Position numbers and translations under genes: made by a program
The notes under the pieces: model-generated
The model's database searches: none
What the model was told of the DNA's origin: nothing
The model's input: the letters and a program-made list of their open reading frames with translations, nothing else
Part shown: positions 1 to 36,732 of the stretch, piece after piece
Position numbering within the stretch: the stretch's first letter is position 1
Layout of the letters: each line of letters begins with the position of its first letter
Origin: a virus
Length of the DNA: 36,732 bases
Reading direction: 5' to 3' (one strand)
Virus record (IMG/VR): IMGVR_UViG_3300029922_000179

Positions 1-67
1 CAACGGCGACGGCTCCGGCTACGGCTACGGCGACGGCCGCTACCCCTACAGTCTGGTGACGCGATGA
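1..67 (+). CDS. 3' fragment of a Gly-X repeat micro-protein (duplicate of the end of 36431..36688 because of the terminal overlap)
   Basis: Reads ...NGDGSGYGYGDGRYPYSLVTR then TGA at 65..67, overlapping the next ATG at 64. Confidence 0.55.
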   Translation, partial: NGDGSGYGYGDGRYPYSLVTR

Positions 68-111
68 AATATCCCAAAGGCTACGGCGACGGCTACGGCG
101 ACGGCTACGGC
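1..111. repeat. Terminal direct overlap; 1..111 is identical to 36622..36732 (signature of a circular or permuted assembly)
   Basis: Base-by-base comparison: both copies read caacggcgacggctccggctacggctacggcgacggccgctacccctacagtctggtgacgcgatgaaatatcccaaaggctacggcgacggctacggcgacggctacggc. Confidence 0.8.
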
Positions 112-231
112 TACGGCTACGGCAACGGCAACGGCTCCGGCAACGGCTACGGCTACGGCAACGGCAACGGCGACGGCTCCGGCTACGGCTACGGCGACGG
201 CCGCTACCCCTACAGTCTGGTGACGCGATGA
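64..231 (+). CDS. Gly-X repeat micro-protein, unit 4 (55 aa; below the ORF-track size cutoff)
   Basis: Hand translation gives MKYPKGYGDGYGDGYGYGYGNGNGSGNGYGYGNGNGDGSGYGYGDGRYPYSLVTR. ATGA overlaps at both ends, and a GGTGA SD-like motif sits 4 nt upstream of the ATG. Confidence 0.6.
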   Translation: MKYPKGYGDGYGDGYGYGYGNGNGSGNGYGYGNGNGDGSGYGYGDGRYPYSLVTR

Positions 232-485
232 AATATCCCAAAGGCTACGGCGACGGCTACGGCGACGGCTACGGCGACGGCTACGGCTACGGCAACGGCA
301 ACGGCTACGGCGACGGCTACGGCTACGGCGACGGCTACGGCTACGGCGACGGCTCCGGCTACGGCTACGGCGACGGCTCCGGCGACGGCTACGGCGACGG
401 CTCCGGCAACGGCTACGGCTACGGCTCCGGCGACGGCTCCGGCTACGGCTACGACCGCTACCCCTACAGTCTGGTGACGCGATGA
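228..485 (+). CDS. Gly-X repeat micro-protein, unit 5 (85 aa)
   Basis: ORF track. MKYPKG head, strict Gly-X core (X=Y/D/N/S), ...GYDRYPYSLVTR tail, ATGA overlaps with both neighbours. Confidence 0.6.
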   Translation: MKYPKGYGDGYGDGYGDGYGYGNGNGYGDGYGYGDGYGYGDGSGYGYGDGSGDGYGDGSGNGYGYGSGDGSGYGYDRYPYSLVTR

Positions 486-733
486 AATATCCCAAAGGCT
501 CCGGCGACGGCAACGGCTACGGCTACGGCAACGGCGACGGCTACGGCTACGGCTCCGGCTACGGCAACGGCGACGGCGACGGCTACGGCGACGGCTCCGG
601 CTCCGGCTACGGCAACGGCTACGGCAACGGCAACGGCAACGGCTACGGCAACGGCAACGGCTACGGCTACGGCAACGGCTACGGCAACGGCTCCGGCAAC
701 GGCCGCTACCCCTACAGTCTGGTGACGCGATGA
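482..733 (+). CDS. Gly-X repeat micro-protein, unit 6 (83 aa)
   Basis: ORF track. Same head, core and tail architecture; Asn-rich core; ATGA overlaps. Confidence 0.6.
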   Translation: MKYPKGSGDGNGYGYGNGDGYGYGSGYGNGDGDGYGDGSGSGYGNGYGNGNGNGYGNGNGYGYGNGYGNGSGNGRYPYSLVTR

Positions 734-927
734 AATATCCCAAAGGCTCCGGCGACGGCAACGGCTACGGCTACGGCAACGGCAACGGCGACGGCTACGG
801 CTACGGCAACGGCAACGGCTACGGCTCCGGCTACGGCAACGGCAACGGCTACGGCAACGGCAACGGCGACGGCTCCGGCTACGGCTACGGCGACGGCCGC
901 TACCCCTACAGTCTGGTGACGCGATGA
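730..927 (+). CDS. Gly-X repeat micro-protein, unit 7 (65 aa)
   Basis: ORF track. Same architecture; ATGA overlaps. Confidence 0.6.
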   Translation: MKYPKGSGDGNGYGYGNGNGDGYGYGNGNGYGSGYGNGNGYGNGNGDGSGYGYGDGRYPYSLVTR

Positions 928-1202
928 AATATCCCAAAGGCTACGGCGACGGCTACGGCGACGGCTACGGCTACGGCTCCGGCTACGGCAACGGCGACGG
1001 CTACGGCTACGGCGACGGCTCCGGCTACGGCTACGGCTACGGCTACGGCGACGGCGACGGCAACGGCGACGGCGACGGCTACGGCTCCGGCGACGGCTAC
1101 GGCGACGGCTCCGGCAACGGCTACGGCTACGGCTCCGGCTCCGGCGACGGCTCCGGCTACGGCTACGACCGCTACCCCTACAGCCTGGTGACGCGACCTT
1201 GA
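924..1202 (+). CDS. Gly-X repeat micro-protein, unit 8, last in the array (92 aa)
   Basis: ORF track. The tail differs only here (agc instead of agt for Ser; ends LVTRP then TGA) and no further ATGA junction follows. Confidence 0.6.
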   Translation: MKYPKGYGDGYGDGYGYGSGYGNGDGYGYGDGSGYGYGYGYGDGDGNGDGDGYGSGDGYGDGSGNGYGYGSGSGDGSGYGYDRYPYSLVTRP

Positions 1203-1227
1203 TTGAAGTGCATTTATTTGCTATATT
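1199..1227 (+). promoter_or_regulatory. Sigma70-like promoter with extended -10 (TTGATT-N17-TGcTATATT) immediately after the array
   Basis: TTGATT at 1199..1204, TG at 1219..1220, TATATT at 1222..1227. It shares the catttnnnTGCTATAwT context with the promoter at 31071..31098. Confidence 0.45.
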
Positions 1228-1258: not shown

Positions 1259-1552
1259 ATGACAACATATTCATTGAGATGTAGGAACAGCAAATGCCGC
1301 CACCGTCGCGTAGGAAAAACGCATCCATTCGACTATAAGGTGGTGCCTAAGTGCGAAAGCTGTGGAAAACGTGTCGGTTGGCGCATAGAGAAACGAGATT
1401 TTCAGAGAAAGAATCTGTGTTATTGCAGCAGTGTAGTTGGAAGCAACGGAAACTACCCGCACAAAAAAACTCACCCATTTTGCGATCAGCACCCGATGGG
1501 TATTGAAAATCAGATGCGTCGCTCTGGTTATTTTGATGAATGTCCATTTTAA
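1259..1552 (+). CDS. Cys-rich zinc-ribbon-like small protein
   Basis: ORF track. CRNSKC...CESCGKR pairs and a duplicated KTHPF motif. No clear SD. Confidence 0.5.
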   Translation: MTTYSLRCRNSKCRHRRVGKTHPFDYKVVPKCESCGKRVGWRIEKRDFQRKNLCYCSSVVGSNGNYPHKKTHPFCDQHPMGIENQMRRSGYFDECPF

Positions 1553-2750: not shown

Positions 2751-2763
2751 GAGCAAATTGATC

Positions 2764-3708
2764 ATGTCCACAACAGAAGATTTCAAGAGCCGCGCTATCG
2801 CAACGACAGAGCCGACTACGTTTCCCCAGATGCTAAAGGCCTTCTTGCCGGAAGTCGAGCGGGCATTGCCCCGTCATCTTAGTGGTGATCGTATGTCGCG
2901 TATCGCATTGACCGCATTTCGTCGCACACCAAAGTTAGCGCAGTGTGATCCGCGATCCGTGTTTGCGGCTGTTATTCAAGCTTCACAATTGGGACTGGAG
3001 CCGGACACTTTGGGCCGGTCTTACCTGATCCCATACGGCACTGAATGTCAGTTTGTTCCAGGCTGGAAAGGTCTGGTTGATCTGATGAATCGAAGCGGCG
3101 CTGGAACCGTCTATACAGGCGTCATTTACAGCGATCAAAAATACACCTATTTAGATGGTTCCAAACGCGAATTGGTGATCCATACAGAAACTGAAATGGA
3201 TGATCCATCCGAAATTACGCATGCATATGCTATTGGATGGGTAAAAGGTTCGGAAATTCCGATTATCGAGTTGTGGCGCATGGCAAAAATTATCAAACAC
3301 TTGAATCGATACAACAAGGTCGGTAAAAGGCATTATGCATTTGAGAACATGGAAATGTATGCGCGCAAAGTGCCATTGCTCCAAGTCCTTAAATACATGC
3401 CGTGTAGCGCCGAGCTAGTCGCCGCTATGAGCCTTTCAGATGCCGCCGAAGTAGGGTCGCAAGGGCTCAACATCAAAGACGCTGCCGATGGCACTTGGAT
3501 GGCTCCAGAAGTCATTGAGGGCCAGCAGGACTCAGTAAGGGCGCCACTCGCTTTTGAAGTCGTATTGAAGAAGATCCGTGGAGCTAAGGACGTAGAAATG
3601 CTCAAGGTGGAGGGTGAGTTGATTGATGATCTTCCTGCTGGTGATCAGGAAGCGGCGAGAGAAGTCTACATCGAATGTCTGGATATCTTAGGGCGCAAGA
3701 AATCGTGA
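2764..3708 (+). CDS. recT: RecT-family single-strand annealing protein
   Basis: VFAAVIQASQLGLEPDTLGRSYLIPYG...FVPGWKGLVDLMNRSG is typical of RecT. AGGAG lies 10 nt upstream of the ATG at 2764; the ORF track starts at TTG 2758. Paired with the YqaJ exonuclease. Confidence 0.7.
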   Translation: MSTTEDFKSRAIATTEPTTFPQMLKAFLPEVERALPRHLSGDRMSRIALTAFRRTPKLAQCDPRSVFAAVIQASQLGLEPDTLGRSYLIPYGTECQFVPGWKGLVDLMNRSGAGTVYTGVIYSDQKYTYLDGSKRELVIHTETEMDDPSEITHAYAIGWVKGSEIPIIELWRMAKIIKHLNRYNKVGKRHYAFENMEMYARKVPLLQVLKYMPCSAELVAAMSLSDAAEVGSQGLNIKDAADGTWMAPEVIEGQQDSVRAPLAFEVVLKKIRGAKDVEMLKVEGELIDDLPAGDQEAAREVYIECLDILGRKKS

Positions 3709-13867: not shown

Positions 13868-15235
13868 CTAGCTGGAAGAATTCGAAGAGCCGGAAGACGA
13901 ATACATTTTCGCAAGCGTTTGCATGAAATTCGTCATCGCTTGTTGGCTCTGTTGATCTGCCGTTGTTGCTGCTGTTACGCCAGCCAATTGCGGACCCTGC
14001 GCAACTCCTGCGGCGGATAGGCCTCCGCTCAGTTCATTATTGAGCGCCTGCTGCATCATCTGATTTTGTTGCACGCCGACCTGTGCCAATGCGCTTGCTT
14101 CCATCGATGAATTACTCAATCCAGCATTGGCATAATACTGCTTTATTTGCGCCTGTTGCTGCTGTCCGTATTGCGCGATGGATTGCTGATCCGCAGTGCT
14201 CAACGTGCCGCTCTGATAGTTCGTCAGTAACTGATTGGACACCGCCGATGCGGGAGCTGCGATAGCGTTCAACTGGTTTTGAGCAGTTGCCCCAGTCGTT
14301 GTCGCCGCAGTTTGCGCCTTTTTCGCCATCAGCAAGCTGGCTATTGGCGTAGCTATTCCGGCCACATCCTTGCCAACGCTTAACGCTGTTTTTCCATAGG
14401 CTCCAAGTTGCTTTAGCGCGCTTGTGATTGACGAATTACTGCCTTGGTTGTCTGCTCCAGAACCTGTTCCTGTACCGTAGGGAGTACCATTTTGAGCGGA
14501 ATCCGTGTCGAGAATGTCATTGGACACCGGAGTTGCTGGCGTCGACGGTAACGTAGCCGCTGATGCAGACTGAGCAGCAGCATTGGATACGTCGGCGGGC
14601 GGATTAGTGATTGTTCCAGTAGCGGCATTTGTAGCAGGGCTTGTATTGGGATTGACCGCGTCCGGAGTTACGCTTGCCGGTGCGGATGCAGAGTCTGCGG
14701 AGGATGGTAATGCGGCACTATCAGAAACAACCTGGGAATCTGCTCCTGATAAATCTGAAAGAGCTGAATTTTCAGAGCCTAAGCCAAGTCCGCTAGCTCC
14801 AGAACCGAAAGTAGGGGTAGAGGAATTAATCCCCATGCTGGAAGCGCTTGCCCCTAAATCAGAGCCTCCGACATTTCCATAAATGTCCGCAGAGGAAGAT
14901 CCCAGATTGGATAACCCTGATGCTCCCTGATAAATATTTCCTACATCCTGTAGATCTCCCAATGTTGACCCAGAGGAAGCGGATGGCATTGCCAGCGTAG
15001 CCCCCTCCGCAGCGCTAGCAGCACCAGCACCTGCGTCAGCAGCCGCCGCTCCAGCTCCAACATCGGCTGCGGCAGCACCGCCAGCCACATCGGCTGCGGC
15101 AGCACCGCCAGCCACATCGGCTGCGGCAGCACCGCCAGCCACATCGGCTGCTCCTGCCGCCCCAGCATCCGCAGCCGCTGCCTCTCCAGCAGTTTTAGCG
15201 CCCTCTTCAGCTCCAACAGATCCAGAAACACCCAT
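13868..15235 (-). CDS. Low-complexity Ala/Ser/Gly/Gln-rich virion protein (455 aa)
   Basis: ORF track. AGGAGA SD. Contains the AADVAGGAA x3 repeat. Confidence 0.5.
   Translation of the reverse strand: MGVSGSVGAEEGAKTAGEAAAADAGAAGAADVAGGAAAADVAGGAAAADVAGGAAAADVGAGAAAADAGAGAASAAEGATLAMPSASSGSTLGDLQDVGNIYQGASGLSNLGSSSADIYGNVGGSDLGASASSMGINSSTPTFGSGASGLGLGSENSALSDLSGADSQVVSDSAALPSSADSASAPASVTPDAVNPNTSPATNAATGTITNPPADVSNAAAQSASAATLPSTPATPVSNDILDTDSAQNGTPYGTGTGSGADNQGSNSSITSALKQLGAYGKTALSVGKDVAGIATPIASLLMAKKAQTAATTTGATAQNQLNAIAAPASAVSNQLLTNYQSGTLSTADQQSIAQYGQQQQAQIKQYYANAGLSNSSMEASALAQVGVQQNQMMQQALNNELSGGLSAAGVAQGPQLAGVTAATTADQQSQQAMTNFMQTLAKMYSSSGSSNSSS
15061..15151. repeat. Perfect 27-nt tandem repeat, about 3.4 copies (catcggctgcggcagcaccgccagcca)
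   Basis: Read directly. Encodes AADVAGGAA repeats in the 13868..15235 product. Confidence 0.85.
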
Positions 15236-31070: not shown

Positions 31071-31098
31071 TTGAATTAACTAATTCATTTGCTATAAT
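31071..31098 (+). promoter_or_regulatory. Sigma70-like early promoter with extended -10 (TTGAAT-N16-TGcTATAAT)
   Basis: TTGAAT at 31071..31076 and TATAAT at 31093..31098. The first downstream ATG is at 31134 with a GGAG SD. Confidence 0.55.
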
Positions 31099-31314: not shown

Positions 31315-31515
31315 ATGCAAACAGTCAAAGTAAACGGCGTAGGTGGCGAATGGACTAAGACTACGGTTACAGTTCAAGGCAAAGCATGCCGCCGCATTAT
31401 GGCTCCTGACGGCAGCAAAGACTACGATTACGAAGGTGTTCGCAGCGTCGTCCGTCTTCGCCACACTAGCAAACTGGCAATTGCAATCGAAGCAGAAATC
31501 GTCAAGCTGTCGTAA
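31315..31515 (+). CDS. Hypothetical small protein (66 aa)
   Basis: AGGAGA lies 6 nt upstream of the ATG at 31315. The ORF-track TTG start at 31171 is unlikely. Confidence 0.5.
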   Translation: MQTVKVNGVGGEWTKTTVTVQGKACRRIMAPDGSKDYDYEGVRSVVRLRHTSKLAIAIEAEIVKLS

Positions 31516-31558
31516 CCAACCGGGGCTTCGGCCCAAAACCACAACAGGAGCTAAACAA

Positions 31559-32116
31559 ATGAAAACCACATTAAAAAAGATCAGAGAGTGTGCGGCATCC
31601 CCCGCCAGCTTACAAAAGTTATTGCGTTCGTTAGGTAAAACGAAAGCAGATGCCGAACCCGTTTCCATCATTCAGATTCTGGACAGCAACGGATTAGATG
31701 ATGCGCTGTGGTGTCTGCGTGCAGTGGAAGGTCATGACCGCGAGATTCGACTTTTTGCTGTGTGGTGCGCTCGCCAAGTCGAACATTTGATGATGGATGA
31801 GAGAAGCAAGAACGCATTGAACGTCGCCGAACGTTTCGCCAATGGCGAGGCATCGAAAGTCGAATTGGCCGCTGCCAAGGCCGCTGCCTTGGCAGCTGCC
31901 TGGGCCGCTGCCTGGGCCGCTGCCTGGGCCACTGCCAGGGCCGCTGCCTTGGACGCTGCCTGGGCCACTGCCAGGGCCACTACCAAGGCCGCTGCCTTGG
32001 ACGCTGCCTTGGACGCTGCCTGGGACGCTGCCTGGGCCACTGCCAGGGCCGCTCAAGAAAAAGAACTGCGCCGAGTCTGCGCAAAGATCGAAGCAGATTT
32101 GGCAGTAGGCGCATAG
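31559..32116 (+). CDS. Helical protein with a C-terminal Ala-rich tetrapeptide repeat, (A/D)(A/T)(A/T)(W/L/R/K) x15
   Basis: AGGAG SD before the ATG at 31559. The N-terminal part (ALWCLRAV...RLFAVWCARQVEHL...ALNVAERFANGEAS) resembles Imm5-like putative immunity proteins, from memory only and unverified. Confidence 0.55.
   Translation: MKTTLKKIRECAASPASLQKLLRSLGKTKADAEPVSIIQILDSNGLDDALWCLRAVEGHDREIRLFAVWCARQVEHLMMDERSKNALNVAERFANGEASKVELAAAKAAALAAAWAAAWAAAWATARAAALDAAWATARATTKAAALDAALDAAWDAAWATARAAQEKELRRVCAKIEADLAVGA
31868..32047 (+). repeat. 12-nt coding tandem repeat (GCC GCT GCC TGG and variants), 15 units
   Basis: Units read AAAK AAAL AAAW AAAW AAAW ATAR AAAL DAAW ATAR ATTK AAAL DAAL DAAW DAAW ATAR. 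Confidence 0.85.
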
Positions 32117-33670: not shown

Positions 33671-33949
33671 ATGAACACAAAAATCTTAGCAGTTTCCGGC
33701 GGTTTCTATTTCTTTGGAACAGAAATTACTGCGCAGGCCGATGGCTATATCGCCCTCAAAAACGCCGCGATGTTTGGTGGTTTTTCTGGTGGAAAAGGGT
33801 TGCCTGGGGTGGCGCGCGGCGATAAGTCGTCGACAGTCATACTGGACCAATTCGTTCCAGAAGAAGAGCTGCTGTTTCCAGTAACGGCCGTGTTTGCAAT
33901 TCTCCCTTCCATCGATCTCTATACCTTCAAAGGTACTACTTTACGATAA
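33671..33949 (+). CDS. Hypothetical protein (92 aa), first gene of the MoxR/vWA/array block
   Basis: AAGGAG lies 6 nt upstream of the ATG at 33671. Contains a GGFSGGKGLPGVARGD motif. Confidence 0.55.
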   Translation: MNTKILAVSGGFYFFGTEITAQADGYIALKNAAMFGGFSGGKGLPGVARGDKSSTVILDQFVPEEELLFPVTAVFAILPSIDLYTFKGTTLR

Positions 33950-34016: not shown

Positions 34017-34805
34017 ATGAGAAAATTATTCTCGCCACACATACCCGTCCTTTTAATTGGCCCTCCCGGCATAGGAAAAACGGAACGCGTACAGTCGTAT
34101 TTCGACCACGCCGAAGTCATGCTGACATCGACGCTTGTCGAGGAGGACATCGGCGGACTTCCCTATCGCGAGGGGGAATACGATTACCGCACCATTCCTG
34201 CTATGTTTCGTCGGCTAGAAGAAGCCAACACAAATGGTAAAACAACTGTTCTTTTTCTTGATGAGCTGGATAAGGCAAGGCGCTCTGTAGCTGACACGTT
34301 GCTAACCCTTATTGCCTCGCGTAAAGTTGGATCTGCTTCATTACCGAAAAATACGTGCATTGTTGCCGCTGGCAATCCCCCAGAGTTCGGCGGCGGTGAT
34401 GGAATTAGCGAGGCGATGCTATCACGATTTGCAGTCGTTGACTGCGAGCCGGATATTCTGGAATGGTGCGAATGGGCCAAGAAAAATTTCTCTCCCGAGA
34501 TAGCCAGCGGTGTGATCAATGCGATAAAGACGGGAGAAATGCCGATCTTCGATCGCACAGGAGAAGGTCTCGATAAACGTATTTCTTCTCCCAGAACTAT
34601 TGCGATGGCTCTTCGCGCCGTAGGAATGTTTTCGCCGGGAAGCGACGAACTTTCGCGATTGGTTCGGGGACTTCTTACGCCAGCAGTGGCAAGCCAGCTT
34701 CTCTATCTTGTGCGTAATCAACACAATGATGTACTTGATGTCGCTACTGGCTCTGCAAAAAGAAGCTCGTTAAAGAAGTCGGTTATACAACCGGTGAGAC
34801 TCTGA
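34017..34805 (+). CDS. MoxR-like AAA+ ATPase
   Basis: Walker A LLIGPPGIGKTE, Walker B VLFLDELDKA, sensor-1-like IVAAGNPPE. AGAGGAG SD. Confidence 0.8.
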   Translation: MRKLFSPHIPVLLIGPPGIGKTERVQSYFDHAEVMLTSTLVEEDIGGLPYREGEYDYRTIPAMFRRLEEANTNGKTTVLFLDELDKARRSVADTLLTLIASRKVGSASLPKNTCIVAAGNPPEFGGGDGISEAMLSRFAVVDCEPDILEWCEWAKKNFSPEIASGVINAIKTGEMPIFDRTGEGLDKRISSPRTIAMALRAVGMFSPGSDELSRLVRGLLTPAVASQLLYLVRNQHNDVLDVATGSAKRSSLKKSVIQPVRL

Positions 34806-34807
34806 TC

Positions 34808-35854
34808 ATGCTTACCGCTGCCCCTATAATTCGTAAGCCCCTGTCCTTAATTGGGGCGCCTGGCTTGACCGACTTTGTCAAGATATACATCGCTTCAGAA
34901 CTTAACAAGCGAGAATATCGTACGACCCTGCGTCATGAGCAAGCACATGTTTGGGCTGGCCATAACCGTAGACGGCCAAAAGATGCTGTCGACAAGTTGT
35001 GGCGCATCGCCTGCGAAATGGAAATTGCAAAGACGATCTACGACGATATTGATATTGAAAACATCAATGCTCCTCGTTCTAGATTATCTGGTGGGTATCT
35101 CCCTGATACGTTGGCGAATATGCCCGTAGGCATTATCTTAGCAGAAGACATCTACGAATGGCTTCTGCAACAATCGGAAAACGAGATACCAGACGTCGAA
35201 TGCACATGCTCCTGTACATGCAATTCTGACCGAGATGAGGAGTCAGATCAACCCGATGCGTCTACGATGGTAGAATCCGCGCGCGCGGCTCTGGACGATA
35301 TCGACAAGGTCGGGGATGCGCAAGCCGCAGTAACTAGCAACTATAATCACTTGAAGAACCGCACCCCTTCTCTCACTGACGAAGTAGACGCGGCTTTACG
35401 GGTGAGAGTAGAAAGAGAGCGCACACATAGACGGCCTTCTCGTAGGGACTCTCCAAATGTAATCCTTCCTGGCGCCGTATCGATTCCTAGACCGCCTCTG
35501 GTAGAGATATTCGTCGATAGAAGTGGCTCGTTCTCTTCTGACAAAACCGCCCAAGCTGAAATTCGGCTAAAAAAAATACTGGCAAAATACGGCGCTAGTA
35601 TAGCCGCTGATGTTTGGTTCTTTGGGAATGGTAGAATATCGGCCAGCGATATAAGAGGTGGAGGGGATACGCCATACCATCTAATCGCCCAACATCTCGC
35701 CGTCTCTTTGCCGAAGATAGCCATCGTAATTACCGACGATGATCCGGTAGAAAACTCAATTAAGCCGGTTTTAGGGCCAGTTATAATTTGCGTTCCCGTG
35801 GGATGCACATCTACAAATTTAGCCCGTCGCCTCGGCGGAAAAGACGTTGCATGA
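34808..35854 (+). CDS. Zincin-like metallopeptidase domain + vWA (MIDAS) domain protein (DUF2201-like architecture)
   Basis: HExxH in LRHEQAHVWAGH. MIDAS DxSxS in EIFVDRSGSFSS. Later AIVITDDD strand. Starts 2 nt after the MoxR stop, and its own stop overlaps the first array ATG (ATGA). Confidence 0.7.
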   Translation: MLTAAPIIRKPLSLIGAPGLTDFVKIYIASELNKREYRTTLRHEQAHVWAGHNRRRPKDAVDKLWRIACEMEIAKTIYDDIDIENINAPRSRLSGGYLPDTLANMPVGIILAEDIYEWLLQQSENEIPDVECTCSCTCNSDRDEESDQPDASTMVESARAALDDIDKVGDAQAAVTSNYNHLKNRTPSLTDEVDAALRVRVERERTHRRPSRRDSPNVILPGAVSIPRPPLVEIFVDRSGSFSSDKTAQAEIRLKKILAKYGASIAADVWFFGNGRISASDIRGGGDTPYHLIAQHLAVSLPKIAIVITDDDPVENSIKPVLGPVIICVPVGCTSTNLARRLGGKDVA

Positions 35855-36138
35855 AATATCCCAAAGGCTACGGCGACGGCGACGGCTACGGCGACGGCGA
35901 CGGCTACGGCTACGGCGACGGCTACGGCTACGGCGACGGCGACGGCGACGGCTACGGCGACGGCGACGGCTACGGCAACGGCAACGGCAACGGCGACGGC
36001 GACGGCTACGGCAACGGCAACGGCTACGGCGACGGCTCCGGCAACGGCTACGGCTACGGCTCCGGCGACGGCTACGGCTACGGCTACGGCTACGGCTACG
36101 GCGACGGCCGCTACCCCTACAGTCTGGTGACGCGATGA
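35851..36138 (+). CDS. Gly-X repeat micro-protein, unit 1 (95 aa)
   Basis: The ATG at 35851 overlaps the vWA gene stop (ATGA). Product is MKYPKG-(G-X)n-GDGRYPYSLVTR. The ORF-track start at 35788 lies inside the vWA gene and is unlikely. Confidence 0.6.
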   Translation: MKYPKGYGDGDGYGDGDGYGYGDGYGYGDGDGDGYGDGDGYGNGNGNGDGDGYGNGNGYGDGSGNGYGYGSGDGYGYGYGYGYGDGRYPYSLVTR

Positions 36139-36434
36139 AATATCCCAAAGGCTACGGCGACGGCTACGGCTACGGCTCCGGCAACGGCTACGGCTACGGC
36201 AACGGCTACGGCGACGGCTACGGCTACGGCGACGGCGACGGCGACGGCTACGGCGACGGCGACGGCTACGGCAACGGCAACGGCAACGGCGACGGCGACG
36301 GCTACGGCAACGGCAACGGCTACGGCGACGGCTCCGGCAACGGCTACGGCTACGGCTCCGGCGACGGCTACGGCTACGGCTCCGGCTACGGCTACGGCTA
36401 CGACCGCTACCCCTACAGTCTGGTGACGCGATGA
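36135..36434 (+). CDS. Gly-X repeat micro-protein, unit 2 (99 aa)
   Basis: ATG at 36135 inside the conserved junction. The ORF-track 35847 ORF merely reads through unit 1 in the LRRR frame. Confidence 0.6.
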   Translation: MKYPKGYGDGYGYGSGNGYGYGNGYGDGYGYGDGDGDGYGDGDGYGNGNGNGDGDGYGNGNGYGDGSGNGYGYGSGDGYGYGSGYGYGYDRYPYSLVTR

Positions 36435-36688
36435 AATATCCCAAAGGCTACGGCGACGGCAACGGCTACGGCGACGGCTACGGCGACGGCTACGGCGACG
36501 GCTACGGCTACGGCAACGGCAACGGCTACGGCGACGGCTACGGCTACGGCGACGGCTACGGCTACGGCGACGGCTCCGGCTACGGCTACGGCTCCGGCAA
36601 CGGCTACGGCTACGGCAACGGCAACGGCGACGGCTCCGGCTACGGCTACGGCGACGGCCGCTACCCCTACAGTCTGGTGACGCGATGA
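36431..36688 (+). CDS. Gly-X repeat micro-protein, unit 3 (85 aa)
   Basis: ORF track. Same architecture; ATGA overlaps. Confidence 0.6.
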   Translation: MKYPKGYGDGNGYGDGYGDGYGDGYGYGNGNGYGDGYGYGDGYGYGDGSGYGYGSGNGYGYGNGNGDGSGYGYGDGRYPYSLVTR

Positions 36689-36732
36689 AATATCCCAAAG
36701 GCTACGGCGACGGCTACGGCGACGGCTACGGC
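36685..36732 (+). CDS. 5' fragment of unit 4 (identical to 64..111)
   Basis: MKYPKGYGDGYGDGYG..., truncated by the window end. Confidence 0.55.
   Translation, partial: MKYPKGYGDGYGDGYG

Follow-up and report, generated by a model that had tools for sequence, protein, structure and literature searches.

Length-variable coding repeats are known from bacterial and phage genes. The mycobacterial PE_PGRS genes and other variable-number tandem repeat (VNTR) genes carry Gly-rich, GC-rich in-frame repeats whose length changes through recombination or slippage between constant flanks. Here we describe a locus of comparable build in a phage, IMG/VR virus record IMGVR_UViG_3300029922_000179, the whole 36,732-nt stretch of which was analysed and is called the window below. 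It contains a tandem array of short open reading frames (ORFs), coupled by overlapping stop and start codons, each of which encodes a (Gly-X)n core between a constant head and a constant tail. Like coding minisatellites and PE_PGRS genes, the array combines an in-frame Gly-rich repeat with constant flanks, and its interspersed variants resemble minisatellite variant-repeat maps. Unlike them, it distributes the repeat over many ATGA-coupled mini-genes (55-99 codons) rather than one large protein, follows a strict Gly-X dipeptide lattice, lies in an early operon and has no sequence homology to them. Contingency loci of Neisseria and Haemophilus also have a simple-sequence tract that mutates much more readily than the remainder of the genome, but the 6-nt units of the phage array keep the frame, all variants seen are intact ORFs, and what varies is dose or length.

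Two further comparisons concern the repeat unit itself. The vrRNA arrays of VIPR systems are phage-encoded, consist of conserved GGY alternating with variable NN, end in an invariant tail and lie downstream of small proteins; they are non-coding, their 3' tail is structured, they hold 9-16 pentanucleotide YNNGG repeats with hypervariable NN, the adjacent Vipr protein has a RAMP/RRM fold and a mass of about 20 kDa, and perturbing GGY was reported to abolish silencing, GGY>GGA being among the substitutions tested (bioRxiv 10.64898/2026.04.26.720920). The array described here is likewise phage-borne, with units of conserved GGY alternating with variable dinucleotides and an invariant end, whereas its Gly-Tyr repeats are hexameric and protein-coding, its NN is restricted, and it has neither a RAMP protein nor a structured tail. 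As peptides, the products may be compared by analogy with prion-inspired (X-Tyr)n peptides and [G/S]Y[G/S] low-complexity domains, with which they share a binary Gly-Tyr pattern (PMC8163036, PMC10510724). They differ in being 8-14 times longer, interrupted by Asp, Asn or Ser, and mostly strongly acidic.

Organization and coding capacity of the array

Window bases 1-111 equal 36622-36732, which identifies a circular contig with a 111-bp end overlap and a circle of 36,621 bp. From its start at 35851 the array crosses position 1 and ends at 1202; its first ATG overlaps the TGA of an upstream 348-aa gene. Eight ORFs of 95, 99, 85, 55, 85, 83, 65 and 92 aa follow one another with ATGA overlaps, so that the reading frame shifts back by one at each unit. 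All are on the plus strand: unit 1 at 35851..36138, unit 2 at 36135..36434, unit 3 at 36431..36688 (its tail repeated at window 1-67 through the end overlap), unit 4 at 64..231 (its head present too at 36685-36732), unit 5 at 228..485, unit 6 at 482..733, unit 7 at 730..927 and the terminal unit 8 at 924..1202. A sequence-only reading of positions 1-1202 had taken units 4-8 as the continuation of an array. This is correct in that they continue units 1-3 (35851-36688) around the circle. The values of 55, 85, 83, 65 and 92 aa that it gave as core lengths are right as numbers but are the lengths of whole ORFs. Tandem Repeats Finder places a 6-nt lattice with the consensus GGCTAC at 79-1167 (183 copies, score 932), with its second half at 35866-36658 (132 copies, score 820). 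Long minus-strand ORFs at 46-513, 210-761 and 464-937, which translate as RSRS... or AVAV..., are by-products of the stop-free lattice and not genes.

Each unit consists of a six-codon head, MKYPKG, a core (GGC-NNC)n that encodes (Gly-X)n, and a tail, RYPYSLVTR. The cores are limited to the hexamers GGC-TAC, GGC-GAC, GGC-AAC and GGC-TCC, 20-42 of them per unit. Gly is encoded by GGC in 274 of 274 codons of the array, compared with 35% of Gly codons outside it. The X position uses only TAC, GAC, AAC and TCC, that is, four of the 16 possible NN dinucleotides (TA, GA, AA and TC) over 269 X codons, while TAC makes up 50% of Tyr codons elsewhere in the genome. X is Tyr at 43%, Asp at 25%, Asn at 19% and Ser at 11% of positions in the window array. 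In the cores compared from relatives (L003, L041 and L002), X codons are all NNC, or NNT in the Luteibacter prophage. The dominant residues, Tyr, Asp and Asn together with His in L003, correspond exactly to the four NAY codon boxes of queuosine-modified tRNAs, a coincidence that is probably just first-base variation of TAC.

The constancy of heads and tails noted in the sequence-only reading was borne out, all five of units 4-8 starting with MKYPKG and ending with RYPYSLVTR. Its three tail variants are also present, GDGRYPY in units 1, 3, 4 and 7, GNGRYPY in unit 6 and GYDRYPY in units 2, 5 and 8, and the tail of unit 8 is indeed alone in carrying AGC in place of AGT and an additional Pro and in lacking ATGA. 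The final codons of the tail, TGGTGACGCGATGA, do not vary even at the nucleotide level and supply the ribosome-binding site (RBS) and start of the next unit. Within CTGGTGACGCGATGA lies the RBS match, GGTGA, four bases ahead of the ATG that overlaps the stop. GGTGA is complementary to the 3' end of 16S rRNA. One example of the 44-nt junction, CGCTACCCCTACAGTCTGGTGACGCGATGAAATATCCCAAAGGC at 202..245 on the plus strand, comprises tail, Shine-Dalgarno-like GGTGA, overlapping stop/start and head; there are seven identical copies in the window. Across nine lineages the string xTGGTGACGCGATGA is invariant over 14 nt, three third codon positions included, and the tail residues VTR are therefore best explained as the RBS and start of the following unit. 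The head is constant over 6 aa and the tail over 9 aa, four codons of which are accounted for in this way. Terminal units of Dyella and Ga0102590 end differently, with SLTTKSAQP. The pattern M-x-Y-P-x-G ... (G-X)n ... Y-P-Y-x-L describes a small-protein family that was hitherto unannotated.

A GGC-NNC lattice is open in frame by construction, and an open frame alone therefore proves nothing. For a coding test, units were gathered from nine lineages with the presence of a (G-X)n run as the sole criterion. In the Tyr, Pro and Gly codons of the head and the Tyr-Pro-Tyr codons of the tail, third positions vary in six of six cases and first or second positions in none of 12 (~5e-5 by chance). In L003 and Dyella, three or four synonymous changes leave MKYPKG intact. 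The composition of X is stable across lineages (Tyr 40-66%, Asp 10-29%, Asn 14-30%) even where the codons differ, as with TAT/GAT/AAT in the Luteibacter prophage; GGA replaces GGC in one relative (L011; part of Ga0207664). Variation confined to third positions and a stable X composition despite different codons indicate selection on the translated product, and thus that the array is protein-coding.

This result bears directly on a VIPR-like interpretation, in which the units would be a non-coding guide RNA array of GGY/NN units with an invariant handle, bound by a protein (perhaps p91, the first gene product of the upstream module) and recognizing DNA through an NN code. The superficial likeness to vrRNA arrays and the predicted fold of p91, which is of an RNA-binding type, speak for it. 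The clear codon-position signature in head and tail speaks against it, as do a period of 6 nt and not 5, NN confined to TA, GA, AA and TC in the window, and the GGA blocks of L011, a substitution type tested in the VIPR GGY perturbation. The neighbours are the Sm-like p91, an AAA_5 ATPase and an HExxH/vWA (von Willebrand factor A) protein, and no RAMP neighbour was found. The junction is unstructured, its consensus folding at -2.4 kcal/mol with no covariation and no conserved RNA structure, and there were no Rfam matches. NN-coded matches in the phage's own genome, sought in a scan with an NN skip rule, were no better than in shuffled controls. On these grounds the interpretation was rejected, and we hold it to be highly improbable. 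We consider it just as improbable that the GGY-NN-Y transcript additionally acts as RNA together with the Sm-like protein, in the manner of VIPR guides but with hexamers.

The restriction of variation to codon positions 1 and 2 raises a different possibility. X codons that are all NNC (NNT in L002) are what would be seen in the variable region of a diversity-generating retroelement (DGR), with GGC-NNC arising by adenine mutagenesis of a GGC-AAC template. However, no reverse transcriptase (RVT family) was found among the ~50 ORFs scanned, no template repeat was seen, though no dedicated search for one was made, and only four of 16 NN are in use. The DGR interpretation was rejected, and we give it practically no weight.

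Variation between assemblies and lineages

The exact 348-aa protein encoded just upstream of the array is on record in 69 blocks of public assemblies. Four of the contigs (L024-L027) have no mismatch to the window over 5,043 nt of upstream flank, and another four (L030-L033) have none over 4,803 nt of downstream flank. Unit 8 is identical in four of four other assemblies that reach the downstream flank, while the remainder of the array is different in each assembly. L024 spans an array of two units, a hybrid of units 1 and 7 followed by unit 8, in the middle of a 35.4-kb contig. Hybrids of units 3 and 5 and of units 7 and 5 occur in other assemblies, as do units with new X strings, and one assembly has a 133-aa unit with an internal duplication. 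The variant units range from 79 to 133 aa; all are open and keep head and tail. Since the changes are in frame, what varies is the amount or length of peptide and not an on/off state. The earlier suggestion of a contingency-type locus is therefore not supported as far as switching is concerned, every variant unit within the lattice being in frame and open.

It is possible to ask whether a single true array is present everywhere and short-read assemblers merely differ in their path through its 127-180-nt exact repeats. These repeats are at least as long as typical k-mers. Most contigs break at the array, including eight of 10 contigs of a related phage as well as L001, L040 and the window itself, and some leave it chimerically for other phage DNA. 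L033 contains no novel 127-mer, and L031 none save 21 at the contig start. However, L013, L024, L026 and L027 contain 25-31-mers that are absent from the window array, and L015, which has no novel k-mers at k=25-31, contains novel 61-mers. Path choice in the assembly graph cannot produce such k-mers. In addition, L024 spans a simple two-unit array well inside a long contig, and divergent relatives, a 4.0-Mb chromosome record among them, differ in unit number and length. We therefore regard an assembly artefact as improbable. The tract changes much faster than its flanks, in which there are 0 mismatches over 5,043 + 4,803 nt, and five assemblies carry k-mers absent from the window array, with the caveats that apply to assemblies. 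From these comparisons we conclude that in-frame variation in copy number and length without flanking substitutions is real, its extent being subject to assembly noise.

The divergent relatives are arrays of 1-5 or more units located behind a module of Sm-like, AAA_5 ATPase and metallopeptidase-vWA-like genes. Module and array occur in prophages of Cupriavidus, Dyella, Luteibacter, Burkholderia and Paraburkholderia, and also in IMG/VR and metagenome contigs. The array follows the module in eight lineages, and in one (L004) the module has no array; neighbouring proteins among the array-retaining lineages are only 56-63% identical. Cupriavidus oxalaticus CP196448.1, the 4.0-Mb record, has five units of 99, 75, 119, 77 and 73 aa, and an unrelated gene follows the last of them with ATGA coupling. 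Two units (71 and 41 aa) are present in Dyella sp. SG609, and two units plus a remnant in the Luteibacter sp. Sphag1AF prophage. The presence of arrays in these three shows that the array is real and not an artefact. A Paraburkholderia metagenome-assembled genome carries module and array as well, and in Burkholderia cepacia the contig ends within the array. Unit numbers among divergent relatives are 8, 5, 3+2, 2 and 2, and 0 where the contig runs past the site. The sequence-only reading had named identical unit number and length across divergent relatives as an argument against rapid variation; both differ among divergent relatives and also among assemblies of the same phage.

Other relatives lie outside this arrangement. 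L003 has a second array (2898-3467) ~3.6 kb upstream of its main array, away from the ATPase/vWA genes and after a membrane-protein-like ORF, which consists of two units plus a 17-aa core-less unit, MNYPDGGWVRYPYHLITR, and encodes the junction Arg by AGA and not CGA. Less repetitive relatives that share these ends but occur as single copies (P0003, P0008 and P0335) are found in runs of small phage ORFs, and the single-copy P0002, P0003 and P0008 lie in such runs without the module. Searches beyond this set returned little. Among 50,697 records of cultured phages, neither megablast with 25 kb nor tblastn with the vWA-like protein found anything useful, and a protein-database homologue search with a unit gave eight weak matches. 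Exact units are absent from a collection of 15 billion proteins. A profile search of 1.84 billion representatives gave 336 weak matches, mostly unrelated Gly/Tyr tracts, with a few true relatives with YPY tails among them (P0003, P0335 and P0337). A literature search on Gly-Tyr repeats, DUF2201 and MoxR/vWA in phages found no description of such arrays. The peptide family and the array organization are undescribed in the libraries and literature searched.

How the variants arise may be considered from the structure of the repeats. The exact repeats inside the array are 180, 145, 134, 129 and 127 nt long: 180 nt are shared by units 1 and 2, 129 nt by units 3 and 5, and 127-145 nt are repeated across junctions. 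The block duplication claimed from the sequence is thus substantiated. The hybrid units break within shared blocks or at lattice positions. Junction sequence is uniform inside an array but differs at synonymous sites between lineages, which supports the earlier proposal of expansion and contraction on the 6-nt lattice with homogenized junctions. Junctions and codons that are homogeneous within arrays and divergent between lineages point to concerted evolution. A perfect 6-nt lattice, identical 44-nt junctions and 127-180-nt exact blocks would permit out-of-register homologous recombination and slippage. These could be catalysed by host RecA or by the phage's own YqaJ/RecT pair just downstream. 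The expected outcome would be in-frame deletions, duplications and hybrid units, such that copy number and unit length would differ among otherwise identical genomes. We infer that unequal homologous recombination and slippage make the variants, and help from YqaJ/RecT is plausible.

Operon position and neighbouring genes

The array lies in an early region whose genes share one strand. The region opens with a promoter match at 31071, takes in the array and continues downstream with a Cys-rich ORF, YqaJ, RecT and a resolvase-like gene; outside it, the genome consists of phage structural and lysis genes. The sequence-only reading had proposed that a TTGATT-N17-TGcTATATT promoter follows the last unit with no terminator in between. 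A sigma-70-like match, TTGATT-17-TGcTATATT, is present at 1199..1227 on the plus strand, as a consensus match only; its -35 shares bases with the stop codon of unit 8. Two promoter-like sites were found in 1-1700 against 0.4 expected, and no terminator-like site was found in the same interval. However, the claim that the array forms the 3' end of the MoxR/vWA transcription unit is not supported. There is no terminator, the downstream genes are on the same strand, and in the relatives L041, L003 and L008 an ATGA joins the last unit directly to the gene that follows. As judged from this arrangement, the array is operon-internal, in the early rightward region of a ~36.6-kb phage, with an extra promoter-like site behind it.

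The first downstream gene (1259..1552, plus strand) encodes a 97-aa Cys-rich, zinc-ribbon-like protein that matches phrog_17384, a family without an assigned function; an exact look-up of this protein found it not on record. The end of its ORF overlaps the first listed start of the YqaJ ORF. YqaJ exonuclease (1540-2505) and RecT (2758-3708), both on the plus strand, were assigned by family match.

Upstream, three genes on the plus strand form the conserved module. The first, p91 (33671..33949), encodes a 91-aa protein with a predicted Sm/LSm-like beta-barrel (AlphaFold2 predicted local distance difference test score, pLDDT, 96.7). A Foldseek search against PDB gave 3by7 as the top match (E=4.6e-4, template modelling score 0.58-0.66), followed by many Sm/Lsm chains, and against BFVD it gave DUF6948-like phage proteins. 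p91 is highly conserved, matched no Pfam family, and lies upstream of the ATPase in seven of seven relatives that have enough upstream sequence. The second gene (34017..34805) encodes a MoxR-type AAA+ ATPase (Pfam AAA_5, E=1.3e-12, above the cut-off; phrog_1297 ATPase, E=2.3e-31). The third (34808..35854) encodes the 348-aa HExxH metallopeptidase-like and vWA-like protein of the DUF2201_N/DUF2201 type, whose stop overlaps the start of unit 1 as ATGA. Its H43-E44-x-x-H47 and D237-R-S239-G-S241 are invariant in five relatives. DUF2201 matches five of five members (E 0.0013-0.013) and DUF2201_N three of five (best 2.3e-4), all below the curated cut-off. Some database homologues of the protein carry PF13203 or PF09967, and a PDB sequence search with the vWA-like profile gave nothing significant. 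The MoxR/vWA neighbours named in the sequence-only reading are thus upheld by the AAA_5 match and by HExxH, DRSGS and the weak DUF2201 matches. As in RavA-ViaA, CbbQ-CbbO and NorQ-NorD, an AAA_5 ATPase of the MoxR AAA+ type is adjacent to a vWA-like protein with a putative MIDAS (DxSxS) motif. Unlike in those pairs, the vWA partner has an N-terminal HExxH domain of DUF2201_N type, an Sm-like gene lies ahead, and the genes are phage-encoded.

A putative peptidase next to short genes with constant ends suggests another comparison, with tandem precursor arrays of ribosomally synthesized and post-translationally modified peptides (RiPPs). In such an interpretation, head and tail would be recognition sequences, and the HExxH/vWA protein and the AAA+ ATPase would trim or modify the cores into bioactive Gly-Tyr peptides. 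Adjacent, tandem precursor-like genes with constant ends and variable middles, ATGA-coupled behind a putative metallopeptidase gene, agree with it, and an Asp/Asn beta-hydroxylase-like gene is present elsewhere in the genome (6002-6550). However, the units differ from RiPP precursors in lacking a leader of the usual length, the head being merely 6 aa, and a known maturase: no radical SAM, YcaO, LanM, P450 or similar enzyme is among the ORFs scanned. Their cores are of low complexity, without diversification at discrete positions. No copy of the hydroxylase gene turned up in array-bearing relatives, and the single-copy relatives have no peptidase neighbour. We consider RiPP-like processing very unlikely. 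The hydroxylase-like gene itself (PF05118, E=2.4e-21) is on the minus strand, between lysozyme and tail-fibre-assembly-like genes. It was considered as a modifier of Asp/Asn-rich peptides, for which there is no support, its homologues occurring in unrelated viral contigs and in none of the array-bearing relatives.

Two other coding tandem repeats were seen in the window. One lies in the same early operon, at 31867-32053, where GGCCGCTGCCTG is repeated 15.6 times inside the plus-strand ORF 31343-32116 and encodes Ala/Trp/Leu-rich AAAW/AAAL repeats in a phrog_18326 protein. As called, this protein measures 185 aa in L024-L027 but 181 aa in L028; its length, too, varies between assemblies. The other is a perfect 27-nt repeat of 3.4 copies at 15060-15166, in the minus-strand ORF 13868-15235, which encodes AAAADVAGG near the N-terminus of a 455-aa late protein.

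Possible role of the array peptides

The products have masses of 5.7-9.9 kDa and net charges at pH 7 of about -0.5 to -11.5, most being acidic. AlphaFold2 predicts a disordered chain for a unit (pLDDT 37), which made a fold search impossible. The binary X-Tyr pattern is evident in runs such as GYGYGYGYGYG in unit 1, and in vitro the heptapeptide GYGYGYG assembles into amyloid-like fibrils that bind metal (PMC10510724). The array peptides probably work through their mass and not through exact sequence, as sticky or self-assembling (Gly-Tyr)n material early in infection. They may be clients or substrates of the co-transcribed Sm-like / AAA+ / metallopeptidase-vWA module, which would handle or cleave them, and array length would set their dose. 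Such a role for early-expressed, dosage-acting, self-associating low-complexity peptides is proposed with low certainty. For the locus as a whole, the explanation that we prefer, with slightly better than even confidence, is an operon-internal, recombination-variable array of at least eight coupled mini-genes that encode dosage-acting, self-associating peptides. A more specific version is doubtful. In it, the peptides would form a prion-like (Gly-Tyr)n condensate or fibrillar matrix under an Sm-like / MoxR / metallopeptidase-vWA machine, with array length serving as a fast-evolving dose knob for host takeover or the exclusion of competing phages.

Several observations weigh against the preferred explanation. 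The terminal redundancy (1..111, equal to 36622-36732) lies within the array, and this closing 111-mer recurs at window 165 and 861. The circle was therefore closed within a repeat, and the number (eight) and order of units in the window are ambiguous at the circle join and not secure. Differences seen in L031 and L033 may be other de Bruijn graph paths. L025, L029 and L032, which have the flank or the array in common with the window, exit the array into DNA that is absent from the window, which points to cross-assembly noise; they are either chimeras assembled from different phages via common GGCNAC tracts or further phages of the same samples that carry arrays. The exit DNA occupies 5610-6008 in L025, 1-110 and 430-1988 in L029 and 1-300 in L032; in L025 and L029 it encodes phage-family proteins (phrog_5162 and phrog_4433), and the flank in L032 matched no family. 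A functional tie of the array to the ATPase/vWA pair is unproven, given that L004 is array-free, one L003 array is off-module and single-copy relatives occur without the module. Unit peptides gave only sub-threshold low-complexity matches in Pfam, PHROGs, NCBIfam and PADLOC, among them TrAA12, phrog_18306 and a serine-rich protein. Finally, the frequent Asp residues would oppose amyloid formation.

For the core, a neutral runaway repeat is a serious alternative. A small accessory gene with head and tail would have gained a self-expanding hexanucleotide tract that is tolerated, with a functionless (Gly-X)n and neutral variation. The core-less 17-aa unit of L003, the L004 module without an array and the persistence of both two-unit and at least eight-unit variants of the same phage are consistent with this, as are the predicted disorder of the product and the second length-variable repeat at 31867-32053. 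However, arrays are kept in eight of nine lineages in spite of the divergence of the neighbouring proteins, X composition is conserved despite codon differences, every unit keeps its own conserved RBS and start, and Gly positions are never lost over 274 codons. We therefore judge it unlikely that the core is a mere runaway repeat.

The findings have several implications. The protein collections searched contain few low-complexity peptides of this kind. In these phages and prophages the locus systematically breaks assemblies, and the array would suit use as a strain-level marker for phage populations in peat and soil time series. A further outcome is the recognition of a conserved phage module whose three genes encode an Sm-like protein, a MoxR ATPase and an HExxH-vWA protein. 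Should the peptides be produced and behave as proposed, the array would be a natural case of bacterial viruses using low-complexity, Tyr-rich, self-associating peptides, the dose of which would be tuned through repeat recombination rather than regulation.

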